NCBI GenBank assembly: GCA_039803205.1
Contig: JBDRYB010000004.1
Span: 1 to 64,000 of the forward strand
Length of the DNA stretch: 64,000 nucleotides
Reading direction: 5' to 3'
Source of the DNA: a candidate division WOR-3 bacterium
Lineage (GTDB): Bacteria; Hydrothermota; Hydrothermia; JBDRYB01
The position numbers were made by a program, and so were the translations under genes. Below, in pieces: positions 34,345-39,107 of the stretch. The notes below the pieces were generated by a model. That model saw only the letters and a list, made by a program, of their open reading frames with translations. It did no database searches and was not told where the DNA came from. Positions within the stretch are counted from its first letter, which is position 1; every line of letters starts with the position of its first letter.

Positions 34345-35499
34345 TTGAGCGTTGACAGATCCGCTGTTGGAGAAAGAGGCCTGCGCGTTTTGCAGGTCGC
34401 GGATGTCTATTATCCTCATCCCGGCGGCATACCTGAGCACATAAAGCACTTAGCCGAGGGGCTTTCTGCCAGGGGCCACCATGTTGAGATTCTGAGCGCC
34501 CGTTTTCCGAAAAAGAATTTTCCGGATTGGGAGGACCCCCCCAATATCATCCGCGTCGGCAGGAGCGTGAGGATACCCGCCAACAAGTCCATGAGCTCCA
34601 TCACGGTCTCTGCCAGGCTCTCAAAGAAGGTCAAGGAGATAATCCTTCGGGGCCGATATGACATAGTTCACACCCACGGACCTATTGCCCCTGTTCTGCC
34701 CCTTTTGGCAGTAAAGCACGCGAACTGCAAGGTTGTCTCAACATTCCACGCGGCCCACGGCGATTCGCTTGGCTATGAGATATTCGGGGGATACCTGAGA
34801 AAGTGGCACGATAGGATAGACGGCAGGATAGCGGTTTCCCCTGTTGCAAGGGACAGCGTCGCGAGGTATTTCCCCGGGGAATTCAGGATAATCCCGAACG
34901 GGGTTGATGTGAAGAGGTTCAATCCGGACAACCCTCCCCTCCCACACCTTTCCGGCGCGAGGAACATCCTCTTCGTCGGCAGGCTTGAACCGAGAAAGGG
35001 CGCGAAGTTCCTCTTCCAGGCCTTGCCCTTTGTCCTAAGGAAGGTTCCGGACGCGAGGCTCGTTGTAGTCGGAACAGGGATGACCAGGTGGTATAAGAGG
35101 TTCATAGACCCCTCGGTCAAGCACAGGGTCCTCTTTGAGGGGTTCGTGAACCCGGACATCCTCCCCAGGTATTACACCTCCTCAGAGGTCTTCTGCTCAC
35201 CCGCGACCGGGGGCGAGAGCTTCGGCATAGTGCTTCTTGAGGCCATGGCATCCGGTGTTCCCATTGTGGCCTCGGACATACCCGGTTACAGGTGCGTTAT
35301 GGAGCACGGGGCCGAGGGATATTTCGCGGAACCGGAGGATCCACAAAGCATAGCGGAGGCGCTTATAAGGGTTCTCCTTGACCCGAACGCTCGGGAGATG
35401 GGGAAACGGGGCCGCGAAAAGGCAACAAGCCTTTATTCCTGGGAGAGGGTGGTGGGAATGGTTGAGGATTTCTACAGAGAGGTAATGGCCAGGCCTTGA
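34345..35499 (+). CDS. GT4 glycosyltransferase, PimA-like mannosyltransferase
   Basis: PGG, STFH, IIPNGVD, GRLEPRKG, GGESFGIVLLEAMA; TTG start. Confidence 0.85.
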   Translation: MSVDRSAVGERGLRVLQVADVYYPHPGGIPEHIKHLAEGLSARGHHVEILSARFPKKNFPDWEDPPNIIRVGRSVRIPANKSMSSITVSARLSKKVKEIILRGRYDIVHTHGPIAPVLPLLAVKHANCKVVSTFHAAHGDSLGYEIFGGYLRKWHDRIDGRIAVSPVARDSVARYFPGEFRIIPNGVDVKRFNPDNPPLPHLSGARNILFVGRLEPRKGAKFLFQALPFVLRKVPDARLVVVGTGMTRWYKRFIDPSVKHRVLFEGFVNPDILPRYYTSSEVFCSPATGGESFGIVLLEAMASGVPIVASDIPGYRCVMEHGAEGYFAEPEDPQSIAEALIRVLLDPNAREMGKRGREKATSLYSWERVVGMVEDFYREVMARP

Positions 35500-36803
35500 A
35501 AACCAAAACCCCTTCCTTCACGGGCGTCCTGAGATACAGGAACTTCACCATATTTTCCGTGGCGCAGATGATCTCCCAGTTCGGGGACAGGCTCAACAAC
35601 ATGGCGCTCCTTGGGCTCATTGGAGCCAAGGCCGCTGGCTCGCCCTTTGCCTTCTCCCAGATAGCGATATTCGCGAGCCTTCCTGTCCTCATATTCGGGC
35701 CCATGTCCGGCGTGCTCGCGGACAGGCTGAACAGGAAGTGGGTCCTGGTTGGGGTTGACGCGGCTCGGACCCTCATCGTCTTCCTGATACCGACCCTGGT
35801 ATATCTCACAGGAAACCTCATTCTGGTCAACCTCGCTGTCTTCTCAATATTCCTCCTCGGCCTCCTCTTTAACTCCGCGAAGATGAGCGTCCTGCCCCAC
35901 TTGGTAAGCGGAAAAGAGGAATATCTTATGGCGAACGCTGTGGCGAACTTCATAGGCCGCTTCGCAACATTTCTCGGGCTTCTTCTCGGTGGGTTCATCG
36001 TTGACCTCTACATCTGGCACGAGTTGGGTTGGGATGGTTGGCGCGCGGGTTTCTACATAGATGCTCTCACATACCTGGTCTCAGCCGCTTTCCTCTCCTC
36101 CATGAGCTTGCCCAGGATAGCCGTAAAACCGAGGGAAAAAACAAAAGGGGTTAAGAAGGGGAACAGCATATCGGTGATGTTCAGGGGAAGCTGGGATGAC
36201 ATAAGGTCAACCCTCTCGCTGATCAAGCGAAGAAGGCTGATCAGGCTCGTCTACGCTGGCGTCGCTCTCTCTGTTTTCTACATGGGCGCCGCATACTCCC
36301 TGGACATCATGATCGCCCAGCAGGTCTTCGGGTTCAGGACAAAGGGAACAGGGGTTCTCGGCGGGATACTCGGAATAGGGCTCATTATCGGTTCCCTTTT
36401 CGTTGGAAAATGGGGAAAGAGGTGGGGGGAGATGAGACTGATGTTCATAGGCCTTTTCGCGCTCGCTGTTCTCATGGGGCTCTCAGCTTTCACTTCGGAT
36501 TTCGTGCTCTTCTGCCTCCTGACCCTATTGGCAGGCTTTCTCATGTCCGTTGTCTTCGTTGTCCAGGATACCCTGTTTCACAGGATGGTTCCCCCGAGCC
36601 ACCGCGGAAGGATATTCGCGGTAAAGGAGCTCCTCTGGGCTGGCGGATTCATGGTCTCGGCAGTCTTCCTCGGAGCAGTGGGTGAGTTCATGAAGCTCTT
36701 CGTCAGCTACCACGCGGCTCTTCAATCCCTTTTGGTCTCCTGCGCGCTCGCGATAATCGCCTCGCTCGTCGCATCGCTTTTCTGGATCAGGAAAAGGGCA
36801 TAG
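35496..36803 (+). CDS. MFS transporter
   Basis: SQFGD, GVLADRLNRK motif A, about 12 TM. Confidence 0.88.
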   Translation: MKTKTPSFTGVLRYRNFTIFSVAQMISQFGDRLNNMALLGLIGAKAAGSPFAFSQIAIFASLPVLIFGPMSGVLADRLNRKWVLVGVDAARTLIVFLIPTLVYLTGNLILVNLAVFSIFLLGLLFNSAKMSVLPHLVSGKEEYLMANAVANFIGRFATFLGLLLGGFIVDLYIWHELGWDGWRAGFYIDALTYLVSAAFLSSMSLPRIAVKPREKTKGVKKGNSISVMFRGSWDDIRSTLSLIKRRRLIRLVYAGVALSVFYMGAAYSLDIMIAQQVFGFRTKGTGVLGGILGIGLIIGSLFVGKWGKRWGEMRLMFIGLFALAVLMGLSAFTSDFVLFCLLTLLAGFLMSVVFVVQDTLFHRMVPPSHRGRIFAVKELLWAGGFMVSAVFLGAVGEFMKLFVSYHAALQSLLVSCALAIIASLVASLFWIRKRA

Positions 36804-36904
36804 CGGCTCGTGAGCGGGCAAAATGCCCTTGAGTTTCAGAACCGGGTCGGGATTCCCTGAACGCGATCGTCAAATAGCGCATTACAAAGCCAAAATTTCA
36901 CCAC

Positions 36905-36936
36905 TTGACACACACACACACACAACAGAGCATAAT
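36905..36936 (+). promoter_or_regulatory. Promoter TTGACA-20-CATAAT with (CA)8 tract in spacer
   Basis: Perfect -35 at 36905-36910, -10 at 36931-36936, 5' hairpin 36945-36961, AAGGAGG SD. Confidence 0.75.
36909..36924 (+). repeat. (CA)8 simple sequence repeat
   Basis: Directly visible; no comparable tract noticed elsewhere in the window. Confidence 0.95.
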
Positions 36937-36970
36937 TTGGGGCCGCGGGCCCGTGGCCCGCAAGGAGGTT

Positions 36971-37489
36971 ATGATGAAGGGCTTCATAAAAACACTGGTG
37001 GCCGCGAGCATGACGCTCGCTATGGGATGCTCAAGGGACTGGATGGATTGGCCCTTGAGCCCGACTGAGGACGGAAAGGTGGTCATAGAAGGCGGAGGCG
37101 GAGAGGAGCCGGATTGGCAAGAGGCTTTCCCGGCAACAGTATATGGGACGATCCACTGGTGGCGGACGGATATAATGGGTAGCAATGGCTACATATATGT
37201 GTATGATGCGAACAGAAACTGCATATGCTCTCGTTACTGGGGATTTGTTATCCATGACCCCCAGCCCTTTGATGTATGCGGATGTGACCTCAGAACAGAT
37301 CGTCCGCTTCCCTGGTATGTGTGCGGAGAGGCATATGACGGCAACCTAGACATGTATTGGCACGACGAGGACACCATAACAGATCTCTCCGGTCGGTATA
37401 ACTGTCCAGGATTCAGGAAGAAGGCCCCTTCCACCGGAATAGATCTTTACCTTGGAGACCCTGGGCCGTGTCCGGAGTGTGAACAGTGA
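36971..37489 (+). CDS. Cys-rich lipoprotein of unknown function
   Basis: MMKGFIKTLVAASMTLAMGC lipobox; CIC, CGC, CPEC. Confidence 0.75.
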   Translation: MMKGFIKTLVAASMTLAMGCSRDWMDWPLSPTEDGKVVIEGGGGEEPDWQEAFPATVYGTIHWWRTDIMGSNGYIYVYDANRNCICSRYWGFVIHDPQPFDVCGCDLRTDRPLPWYVCGEAYDGNLDMYWHDEDTITDLSGRYNCPGFRKKAPSTGIDLYLGDPGPCPECEQ

Positions 37490-37493
37490 ATCC

Positions 37494-37535
37494 AAACCCC
37501 CTGGCGCAGGTTGAATCCCACGAGCCAGGGGGTTT
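37494..37535 (+). terminator. 12-bp inverted repeat, terminator-like, overlapping next promoter
   Basis: AAACCCCCTGGC...GCCAGGGGGTTT; loop holds TTGAAT, followed 18 nt later by TATTAT. Confidence 0.5.
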
Positions 37536-37547
37536 ATTATGTATGTC

Positions 37548-39107
37548 ATGATGCTGACAATGATCATCCTTTCACAGGTTGTCCAATGGGAGATTTTGTC
37601 TCCCTATCAGGGGTTTGGTCCTGGCAACAGAAATATCATGATACTACAGGATGGTATTCTCATCTTTGGGGGTAATAGACGAGACCCTTTGGGCGATACC
37701 TGTTGGGGTTTCTGCACAGGGGTGGACACGGCAAGTGGAATAACTCTCTGGGAGCATGAGTTCACCAACTACGAGAAGAGCATCATGTTCACCTTCGCTA
37801 AGGGAAAAGGAGAGTTTTTCAGCATAGGCCAGTGTTATACATCCTCCAATAATGACATCCTGGTTGCAAAGCTTGACGAATCAGGAAACTTGCTCTGGGA
37901 GAGACGAACCGGGAACCCTCTCTACGATGGCGCGGTGACATCAGCATTTGTGGATACGGGAGGCAATCTAGTTGTGGTTGGATGTGAATATGAGGAGAAT
38001 ACAGACATTTACATCCTTTCGTGGGATAGCGATGGCAATCTCAGATGGAGTTTTTCTTACGACTCGCCCTGGCACAAGGACGATTTTTCCTTTTCAGCAG
38101 GCATGGACGAGGAAGGAAGCACATATGCTGTTGGATATTATACGGGCCCGATAAAGGGAAAATGGACTGTGGCCCCCATGATCTTTGAGCTCAGCGAGAA
38201 CGGGAAACCAGGAATAACTTCTGGGCCTGCTGATACTTGCTATGGTCTCACTCCCCTCGTGATCAAGGTTGACAGCTCAGGGAACCTTATCTGGGTTGAT
38301 GATTGCGAATACTGGAATGTTGGTGGTGAGCTCATGTTTGCCGAATATAGCTTTGGAAGGTTATATGCCTCTGGTTTTGCCTGCAATGGCGACCTATATT
38401 CCCAGTGTGAGGATAAACAAGGTTTTCACTTTTGGCACGCTTGGGAAAACCAGAACTTCTTGACCATGGAGCCTCACGGCGGCTTTGTCGATATGCACGG
38501 GAATCTTTACCTCACTGGCCACAAGTGCAATCCGGGTCCGGATGCCTTCTTTGTCTCATATACCTTTTATGGAGAGAGAAGGGTTTTTAGAGAAGTGTTT
38601 CCTGGCTATGGAACGAGGATTGTGGGGGATTCGCTTGGAAATCTTTTTATCGGCGGAAGAGTGATAGATTCAATAGGCAAGGACTTCGCTGTTGCTAAGC
38701 TAGATACCTTGGGCAATCTCATATGGCTATACCGAAAGGACGACGGAACTCCCGACACCAATCAACCCGATCAATGTCTCGGACTCCTCCCGGACAATCG
38801 GGGAGGCGTATTCGCTACTGGTATGCTTTATGATTCTGTCATGACCCCTATTCACTATGTCGTTCATCTCGCTGATACGACAAGCGGGGTCAAGGAGAAT
38901 AAAAACCCTAAACCCGGCCTCACCATAATCCCCGCTCCCTCCGGCTTCTATATAACCGGCCCCTCAGGCGAGGCGAGGATTTACGATTCGGCTGGCCGGC
39001 TTGTTATGGCCAGGGAAATAAAGGGCAAGACCCTGATTAGCCCCCTGGTGCCCGGGGTCTATTTCGTGGTTGCTGGGAAGGAGAGGGTGAAGGTAGCGGT
39101 CCGCTAG
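37548..39107 (+). CDS. SBBP-like beta-propeller surface protein with T9SS-type CTD
   Basis: Repeated K.D..GNL.W units; IYDSAGR...PGVYFV CTD. Confidence 0.8.
   Translation: MMLTMIILSQVVQWEILSPYQGFGPGNRNIMILQDGILIFGGNRRDPLGDTCWGFCTGVDTASGITLWEHEFTNYEKSIMFTFAKGKGEFFSIGQCYTSSNNDILVAKLDESGNLLWERRTGNPLYDGAVTSAFVDTGGNLVVVGCEYEENTDIYILSWDSDGNLRWSFSYDSPWHKDDFSFSAGMDEEGSTYAVGYYTGPIKGKWTVAPMIFELSENGKPGITSGPADTCYGLTPLVIKVDSSGNLIWVDDCEYWNVGGELMFAEYSFGRLYASGFACNGDLYSQCEDKQGFHFWHAWENQNFLTMEPHGGFVDMHGNLYLTGHKCNPGPDAFFVSYTFYGERRVFREVFPGYGTRIVGDSLGNLFIGGRVIDSIGKDFAVAKLDTLGNLIWLYRKDDGTPDTNQPDQCLGLLPDNRGGVFATGMLYDSVMTPIHYVVHLADTTSGVKENKNPKPGLTIIPAPSGFYITGPSGEARIYDSAGRLVMAREIKGKTLISPLVPGVYFVVAGKERVKVAVR

Follow-up and report, generated by a model that had tools for sequence, protein, structure and literature searches.

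The question raised by this locus is whether a short CA repeat, lying between the −35 and −10 boxes of a promoter that precedes a predicted lipoprotein gene, sets the transcription of that gene through its length. The repeat lies in a window of 64,000 nucleotides (the whole stretch of DNA that was analysed, positions 1 to 64,000 of contig JBDRYB010000004.1, here contig C4 of genome G000) from a candidate division WOR-3 bacterium. Our analysis favors a model in which the tract acts as a phase-variation switch of the hif/vmm type, driven by slipped-strand mispairing in the promoter spacer. We consider this reading likely, with the promoter probably OFF in this assembly.

The promoter and the cassette behind it

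The first-pass annotation had described a TTGACA box running into (CA)8, a 20-nt spacer and a CATAAT box, with a 7-bp hairpin, AAGGAGG and a lipoprotein gene downstream. The sequence bears out each of these elements, the lipoprotein being a prediction, with the refinement that the −35 hexamer itself supplies the eighth CA. The perfect dinucleotide run spans 17 nt, (AC)8A or (CA)8, and the spacer itself (36911–36930, 20 nt) consists of (CA)7 followed by ACAGAG. The features of the locus, from upstream to downstream, are these:

36816–36828, forward strand: weak terminator-like stem between the MFS gene and the promoter (1 site against a shuffle average of 3.1)
36848–36904, forward strand: upstream block in common with a paralogous promoter on contig C6 (blastn, 87% over 117 nt against G000:C6:46800-46691)
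36905–36910, forward strand: −35 hexamer TTGACA, its last letters forming the first repeat unit (TTG invariant in 14/14 aligned promoters)
36908–36924, forward strand: CA tract, the variable part of the spacer and the longest dinucleotide run in the genome
36925–36930, forward strand: fixed 6-nt spacer end ACAGAG (homologous promoters also have 6 nt at this place, G001:C75 has 4 nt)
36931–36936, forward strand: −10 hexamer CATAAT without a TG extension (−10 and the subsequent TTG aligned in 14/14 promoters)
36945–36961, forward strand: 7-bp hairpin at the predicted mRNA 5' end, likely a stabiliser (leader fold)
36962–36968, forward strand: ribosome-binding site AAGGAGG
36974–37489, forward strand: predicted lipoprotein, 171 aa, 9 Cys (alignment A1, AlphaFold model)
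37495–37534, forward strand: strong intergenic hairpin (−25.7 kcal/mol for the intergenic region) that overlaps the promoter of the propeller gene and may terminate the lipoprotein mRNA
37511–37540, forward strand: separate promoter TTGAAT-18-TATTAT, 7 nt before ATG 37548
37548–39107, forward strand: secreted beta-propeller protein, second gene of the cassette (weak PQQ_2/propeller matches)

The upstream block shows 5 differences among the aligned metagenome contigs, and the A/T-rich stretch within it, directly 5' of the −35 box, appears to be UP-element-like. No other TTG lies 15–19 nt upstream of the −10 box as an alternative −35. Our promoter scanner accepts spacers of 16–18 nt only, and the 20-nt site is therefore unlisted. 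The lipoprotein gene most likely starts at ATG 36974 and not at TTG 36905. The leader hairpin recurs in four homologous leaders (7 pairs, one with a two-sided change and five invariant); that it begins at the predicted transcript start (about 36943) and is conserved in homologues may lend weak support to that start site. A GC-rich palindrome (36937–36952, and in homologues) overlaps the predicted start site at the point where swapped cassettes diverge; it may serve as an operator or as a preferred site of recombination.

The predicted lipoprotein comprises a signal peptide ending in G-C19, a disordered linker and, at residues 48–171, a beta-sandwich that AlphaFold models confidently with 9 strands (pLDDT 76.6). 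By eye in alignment A1, the signal peptides of the family carry a near-invariant G-C in a relaxed lipobox (LAMG-C), P0015 lacking the Cys. The protein has no family match in Pfam or NCBIfam and no Foldseek match at E 0.001, and the ESM Atlas yields unnamed clusters only (0.89–0.90), with TM scores of at most 0.53. The highest structural match is the type III secretion pilotin ExsB (2yjl, Z 8.2, rmsd 3.1, 95 aligned), followed by matches at Z 7.4 and 7.3 and by Mfa-like and Bacteroidota fimbrial proteins (type V pilin, Mfa-FimB-like; Z 6.0–6.8); with typical noise at 7–8, all of these, the pilotin included, are at noise level. The family occurs in 3 of 272 genomes of the phylum, all of one genus. 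Its members are few and highly diverse, and several carry an identical leader on different bodies (P0014, P0017, P0018).

Upstream lies an MFS gene (35496–36803). In homologous cassettes, too, the lipoprotein gene is followed by a propeller gene, and at other cassettes as well this gene has its own promoter within a hairpin; hairpins like that at 37495–37534 fold at three homologous cassettes. The propeller protein has a weak type-IX-like C-terminal tail (NF047494, E 4e-14; TIGR04183, E 0.0037; both below cut-off), and its mRNA is likely leaderless, judging from the position of its promoter. Because the propeller gene has a promoter of its own behind a strong hairpin, the CA tract likely controls the lipoprotein alone. 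Separately, a second, partial copy of the hairpin-promoter element lies at G000:C4:126556-126582.

Tract length, spacer optimum and mismatch repair

The tract is well beyond what base composition would predict. Among the 20 dinucleotide runs of at least 10 nt in G000 (2,316,562 bases) it is the longest, and an order-5 Markov model expects 0.0014 runs of at least 17 nt (1 seen) and 0.077 of at least 14 nt (2 seen). In each of the two longest runs the first bases belong to a TTGAC hexamer, and 6 nt separate the last base from a −10 box. Mononucleotide runs of at least 8 are depleted (A/T, 9 against 54 expected; G/C, 11 against 52), and thus G000 is not generally repeat-rich. Its G17, C16 and C13 runs were considered as further promoter switches and rejected, none of them lying in a promoter: the G17 run (G000:C41:3580) sits at the end of an insertion-sequence remnant, and the C13 and C16 runs (G000:C14:4896-4992) adjoin an N gap where a CRISPR-like array begins and are likely assembly noise.

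The claim that an 18-nt spacer is the local norm held for all nine promoters cited in its support (each TTGNNN, 18 nt and a −10-like hexamer) and extends to the whole genome. Counts of TTGNNN-x-TA[TC]AAT in G000, which are motif counts and not mapped starts, were 21, 64, 203, 39 and 17 for x = 16 to 20 over a background of about 20, and 18, 55, 130, 26 and 15 once shadow matches were removed; a bump at 20 nt in looser promoter counts vanished with the same correction. Promoters with the full TTGAC use 17- and 18-nt spacers about equally (17 versus 12 genome-wide, 19 versus 22 once crude ORF calls are excluded). Deletion of a single CA unit would thus bring the spacer from 20 nt, near background like 16, to the genome peak at 18 nt, as had been proposed. 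With six fixed bases and a dinucleotide tract every reachable spacer is even, so that 18 is reachable, and 2-nt steps from 20 skip 17; since the −10 box lacks a TG extension and no second TTG is available, 18 nt is the one favorable allele within reach. As a general observation, promoter-like motifs in G000 have a TTGA −35 and an 18-nt peak, and in many of them an ATG follows after about 7 nt, as in leaderless genes.

The stretch is present in four runs, X1–X4, all hot-spring metagenomes from one study, of which X1 and X2 are possible sources of the assembly and X3 is not marked as one; the comparison is of contigs only. The X1 and X2 contigs break at the tract because C4 and C6 have flanks in common. 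The X3 contig spans 36510–36953 with four SNPs and no gaps relative to the assembly; it joins the MFS flank to 36953, and the 20-nt allele is therefore real. The X4 contig (depth 8) covers 36300–37039 with 736 letters for 740 reference bases and is thus 4 nt shorter. It has no gap outside the skipped repeat 36905–36934, inside which one gap row was dropped (the aligner deems such rows mostly false), and the simplest reading of these alignments is a (CA)6 allele with a spacer of 16 nt. Since X3 and X4 have four SNPs in common relative to the assembly, close strains appear to differ in tract length, on the evidence of one X4 contig. At 36885, which like 36952 distinguishes C4 from C6, X4 has the base of the paralogue, and its shorter tract could therefore stem from gene conversion. 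At homologous sites in a sister species, by contrast with this variant, the tract was the same in all four same-site pairs (L039/L040, L036/L042, L037/L043, L020/L029), where it has 5–6 units or is interrupted; two of the four sites carry genes that lack an ATG. A separate observation is that contigs of about 1.0 and 1.9 kb in X1 and X2, at genome depth, match the 5' region of the lipoprotein gene (window 37001–37114) and are absent from the assembly; at least one more cassette is thus unbinned, possibly without a promoter.

Slipped-strand changes persist in the absence of mismatch repair. MutS_I (MutS1) was found in none of the 3 genomes of the genus, compared with 60 of the 61 other genomes of its class, and the MutL domain (PF01119) in 0 of 3 against 44 of 61; nor was NucS found in any of the three (G000, G001, G002). 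These genomes are 86–98% complete, so that absence here means not found rather than proven absent, and since they are related it counts as one evolutionary event. G000 has one MutS-type gene, whose score assigns it to MutS2. Family f2 has MutS1, but 0 of its 12 genomes match the MutL domain. The candidate switch thus coincides with a genus-specific failure to find MutS1.

These observations suggest the following mechanism. Because the tract extends from the −35 hexamer itself, gains and losses of units would leave both boxes intact and alter their spacing by 2 nt, as the sequence itself indicates. The six fixed bases would keep the spacer even, and by the motif counts exactly one allele would fall within the 17–18 nt window; the effect on transcription is expected from the biology of sigma-70, the promoter being of a predicted housekeeping-sigma type. 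The 20-nt spacer seen here would be an OFF or low state, from which loss of one CA unit would restore the commonest spacing in the genome. Slips would probably persist, given that none of MutS1, MutL and NucS turned up in the genus, and the switch would presumably act on the lipoprotein alone. It would probably serve as bet-hedging, with a putative surface protein that carries a cost at times, such as when phages attack; that the switch hides a phage or predator receptor, as the first-pass annotation suggested, is a conjecture.

Homologous promoters and competing explanations

The first-pass annotation had called for a comparison with related genomes, and there tract lengths do differ among homologous promoters, although the 4/4 identical same-site pairs of the sister species offer no such variation. 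The second-longest dinucleotide run of G000, (CT)7 at C38:11670, gives an 18-nt spacer before a radical-SAM/SPASM gene whose nearest relatives are peptide maturases. On C6, the paralogous promoter contains (CA)5, its spacer is 14 nt long, and the lipoprotein gene behind it has an internal deletion; G002:C85 has (CT)6 and a 16-nt spacer before an intact lipoprotein gene; and G001:C75 has a 10-nt spacer before an intact cassette. At the site orthologous to the C4 promoter, G001 (C355) has an interrupted CT tract with a 14-nt spacer, no ATG and a large deletion, and G002 has no cassette; at G002:C89 the spacer is 12 nt and the gene is gone. In JGI metagenomes, 11 of 25 pattern matches belong to the promoter family, with spacers of 14, 16, 18 and 20 nt, and the other 14 were set aside as unrelated or mixed tracts. 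Ten matches come from a further (sister) species, 70–77% identical to the three genus genomes at a neighbouring gene, with spacers of 14, 16 and 18 nt at four sites. L031 has (CT)8 and a 20-nt spacer before an intact exported protein of 133 aa; membership of this protein in the lipoprotein family was not supported (hhalign probability 6%, signal peptide only).

Across homologous cassettes of the genus and the sister species, spacers range from 10 to 20 nt and are always even, and CA or CT fills the same slot. The TTG, the −10 box and the TTG after it are invariant in 14/14 aligned promoters, with tract length and unit varying between them. Where the spacer is within one step of 18 the gene is intact in 6 of 8 cases, and where it is 14 nt or less the gene is broken in 5 of 6 (Fisher p 0.051, with loci that are not independent and L029 left out as it lies at a contig end). 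No CA-type allele with an 18-nt spacer occurs among all the promoters compared. Outside the genus, 36 loose-pattern matches in 269 WOR-3 genomes have at most five pure units; the spacers of such matches are mostly 16–17 nt. The comparison shows the predicted promoter to be a reusable module, standing before a small family of putatively exported beta-sandwich proteins and one radical-SAM peptide maturase. The first-pass annotation had recognised neither that the locus belongs to a family of cassettes nor that the propeller gene has an 18-nt-spacer promoter to itself.

Three loci deserve mention in their own right. The C38 gene (G000:C38:11666-13116; L014:3667-5117) encodes a 439-aa radical-SAM/SPASM protein (TIGR04334, E 6e-110 but under cut-off) with no match at E 1e-20 in G001 or G002, and a Cys-containing ORF begins after it at the contig end, so the locus is possibly a switchable modified-peptide cluster. 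A third G000 cassette (C24:25869-27984; L018) has a lipoprotein gene without its N-terminal part and promoter, beside an intact propeller gene. In L020 (1555–2448, reverse strand), an unrelated body of 298 aa without a Pfam match is fused to the constant leader of the family behind an 18-nt promoter.

Taken together, recurrence of the tract with other lengths and units, one same-site length variant, the genome-wide 18-nt optimum and the repair genes not found speak for the switch; the unchanged same-site pairs speak against it, as do the intact gene behind the 10-nt spacer of G001:C75 and the 18-nt spacer of L020, whose gene is frameshifted by one extra base in an A run within the part that encodes the signal peptide. 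In a rather unlikely alternative, the tract is a mutation-prone relic that drifts slowly, OFF alleles becoming fixed when the gene is costly and the cassette then decaying, with the 20-nt spacer marking early decay. Many cassettes are indeed broken or gone (the C6 deletion, the decayed orthologous site in G001, none in G002, ATA for ATG at two sister-species sites), the same-site pairs do not vary, and section 6 of PMC11868660 warns that short tracts can be mutation-prone without phase variation. Against decay, however, the longest perfect tracts (C4, C38, L031) precede intact genes and are no more than one step away from 18, the C4 allele is longer than the optimum whereas decayed copies are shorter, and the same design is found with two repeat units and in several phyla.

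Cassettes also appear to move. In the sister species, L034 and L043 carry one cassette at different flanks (97.8% over 2.3 kb), and one flank carries different cassettes in L037 versus L043, which diverge right after the −10 region, and in L034 versus L039; metagenome misjoins at repeats may account for some of these swaps. The junctions fall within the common promoter block, and the cassettes have a further 250 nt or so in common at the C-terminal tail. Constant leaders, interchangeable bodies and mosaic junctions, the marks of cassette recombination, are thus all present there, and the hybrid CA-then-CT tracts of L020, L029 and L034 appear to point the same way. These hybrids, the L034/L043 and L037/L043 swaps, the identical leaders on different bodies and the X4 base at 36885 would also fit a view that tract length is altered mainly by recombination among dispersed cassettes, that is, by promoter gene conversion with the tract as a passenger. 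We regard this as quite improbable: conversion merely redistributes lengths that slippage has made, the 4-nt-shorter X4 allele fits neither C4 (8 units) nor C6 (5 units), and the C38 and L031 tracts occur without a lipoprotein cassette.

Expression might instead be independent of the spacer, through read-through from the glycosyltransferase-MFS operon, an activator or another promoter, and the tract would then have little effect. Between the MFS gene and the promoter there is no more than the weak terminator-like stem, and the conserved upstream block could bind a regulator. This explanation is nonetheless very unlikely, since the module is also divergent at C6 and G001:C75, where read-through is impossible, there is neither an alternative −35 nor an extended −10, and no regulator gene adjoins the locus. 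Finally, an assembler error, either in the extra unit, as the first-pass annotation had allowed, or in the assignment of tract lengths to C4 and C6, is largely refuted and hardly tenable, because the breaks of the X1 and X2 contigs at the tract, whose flanks are alike in C4 and C6, are offset by the gapless X3 contig, of the same length from the MFS flank to 36953.

Known switches and TTGAC-seeded tracts in other phyla

Should the tract indeed be a switch, its mechanism would be textbook and of a type best documented in pathogens; its particular features are the hot-spring lineage, the coincidence with repair genes not found in the genus, the cassette family and the recurring TTGAC-seeded design. 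The closest counterpart is hifA/hifB of Haemophilus influenzae, a fimbrial promoter in which (TA)9-11 separates the −35 box from the −10 box (van Ham 1993, summarized in PMC2651432 and PMC3899988). Both have a dinucleotide spacer tract, 2-nt steps and an exported surface protein downstream, here a predicted one. In contrast to hifA/hifB, the present tract is CA or CT seeded by the −35 box, serves one direction only, has an optimum of 18 nt and 8 units, belongs to a hot-spring organism, and its switching is a prediction from sequence. Eight units place it at the short end of known dinucleotide switches, to judge by the (TA)9-11 given in PMC2651432 and the 10–16 units given in PMC3053259. According to the latter, Vmm and other lipoprotein genes of Mycoplasma mycoides have poly-TA promoter tracts, and there, as here, several lipoprotein genes per genome each have a dinucleotide promoter tract of its own length. 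Relative to that account, the protein family here is unrelated, the genome is GC-rich, the tracts are shorter, the second cassette gene has its own promoter, and a radical-SAM gene carries the tract too. In the poly-G spacer of Neisseria meningitidis porA and the vlp promoter tracts of Mycoplasma hyorhinis, spacer length sets the transcription of a surface protein, as PMC3899988 reports; porA moves by one-base steps through graded levels, whereas two-base steps here would skip 17 and 19 and leave one ON allele.

The cassettes also resemble systems of recombination-based antigenic variation in their constant leader, variable bodies, dispersed copies and mosaic junctions. Borrelia vls and vmp vary by recombination, with constant leaders and variable cassettes. 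Neisserial pilin, mentioned in PMC11868660, is another such system. In contrast to pilin and Borrelia, swaps here are seen only between metagenome assemblies. More speculatively, there may be two layers of surface variation in this genus of hot-spring WOR-3, which would have lost mismatch repair, a portable repeat promoter tuned to 18 nt switching private, hypervariable lipoproteins and recombination shuffling the cassettes at promoter-leader and C-terminal-tail repeats, with the TTGAC-seeded switch having arisen independently in many phyla and being findable by one pattern search. We hold this wider picture as tentative.

Section 6 of PMC11868660 reserves the term phase variation for reversible switching at about 1e-5 or more without selection, and section 8 poses as an open question whether multi-locus phase variation is restricted to pathogens. 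With its few related loci, the present case is a candidate for multi-locus variation in a hot-spring phylum that has not been cultured, and the pressure of host immunity is unlikely to be what drives it there. Our literature search, which most subscription journals lay beyond, turned up no paper on phase variation in WOR-3; for WOR-3 with mutS it returned only unrelated material, and among titles and abstracts we found nothing describing this locus or the TTGAC-seeded design.

Since the design (a TTGAC-seeded repeat ending at a −10 box) is searchable, it could be used to survey how widely such switches occur beyond pathogens. The pattern of TTGAC, six more W-C units and a −10 box occurs at 48 loci in 185,579 GTDB genomes (a raw count, with no matched control for the whole collection). 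At 28 of them (among L097–L144) the tract is pure CA or CT of at least 13 nt, and the other 20 were set aside as unrelated or mixed. By record title the hosts include Bacilli, Mycoplasmataceae, Acidobacteriota, Fimbriimonadaceae, Patescibacteria, Planctomycetes, Helicobacter vulpis and Campylobacter, several of the gut and rumen matches being kin. Viral contigs gave no match to the promoter pattern. By eye, most loci have a ribosome-binding site and an ORF close downstream, often a predicted lipoprotein. Their spacers bracket 17 and are mostly odd (20/28), which is to be expected where the tract runs into the T of the −10 box. Homologous lipoprotein promoters of L117 and L142, 85% alike, have spacers of 15 and 19 nt, and both members of another pair, 99% alike, have 21. 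In 25 of these genomes, four further tracts that had not been chosen for a −10 box each had a −10-like hexamer and a gene, and the reversed pattern gave no match there. MutS_I occurs in 8 of the 25, suggesting that repair loss is common but not required for TTGAC-seeded tracts. One genome of 0.8 Mb (G277) holds up to four TTGAC-seeded tract copies.
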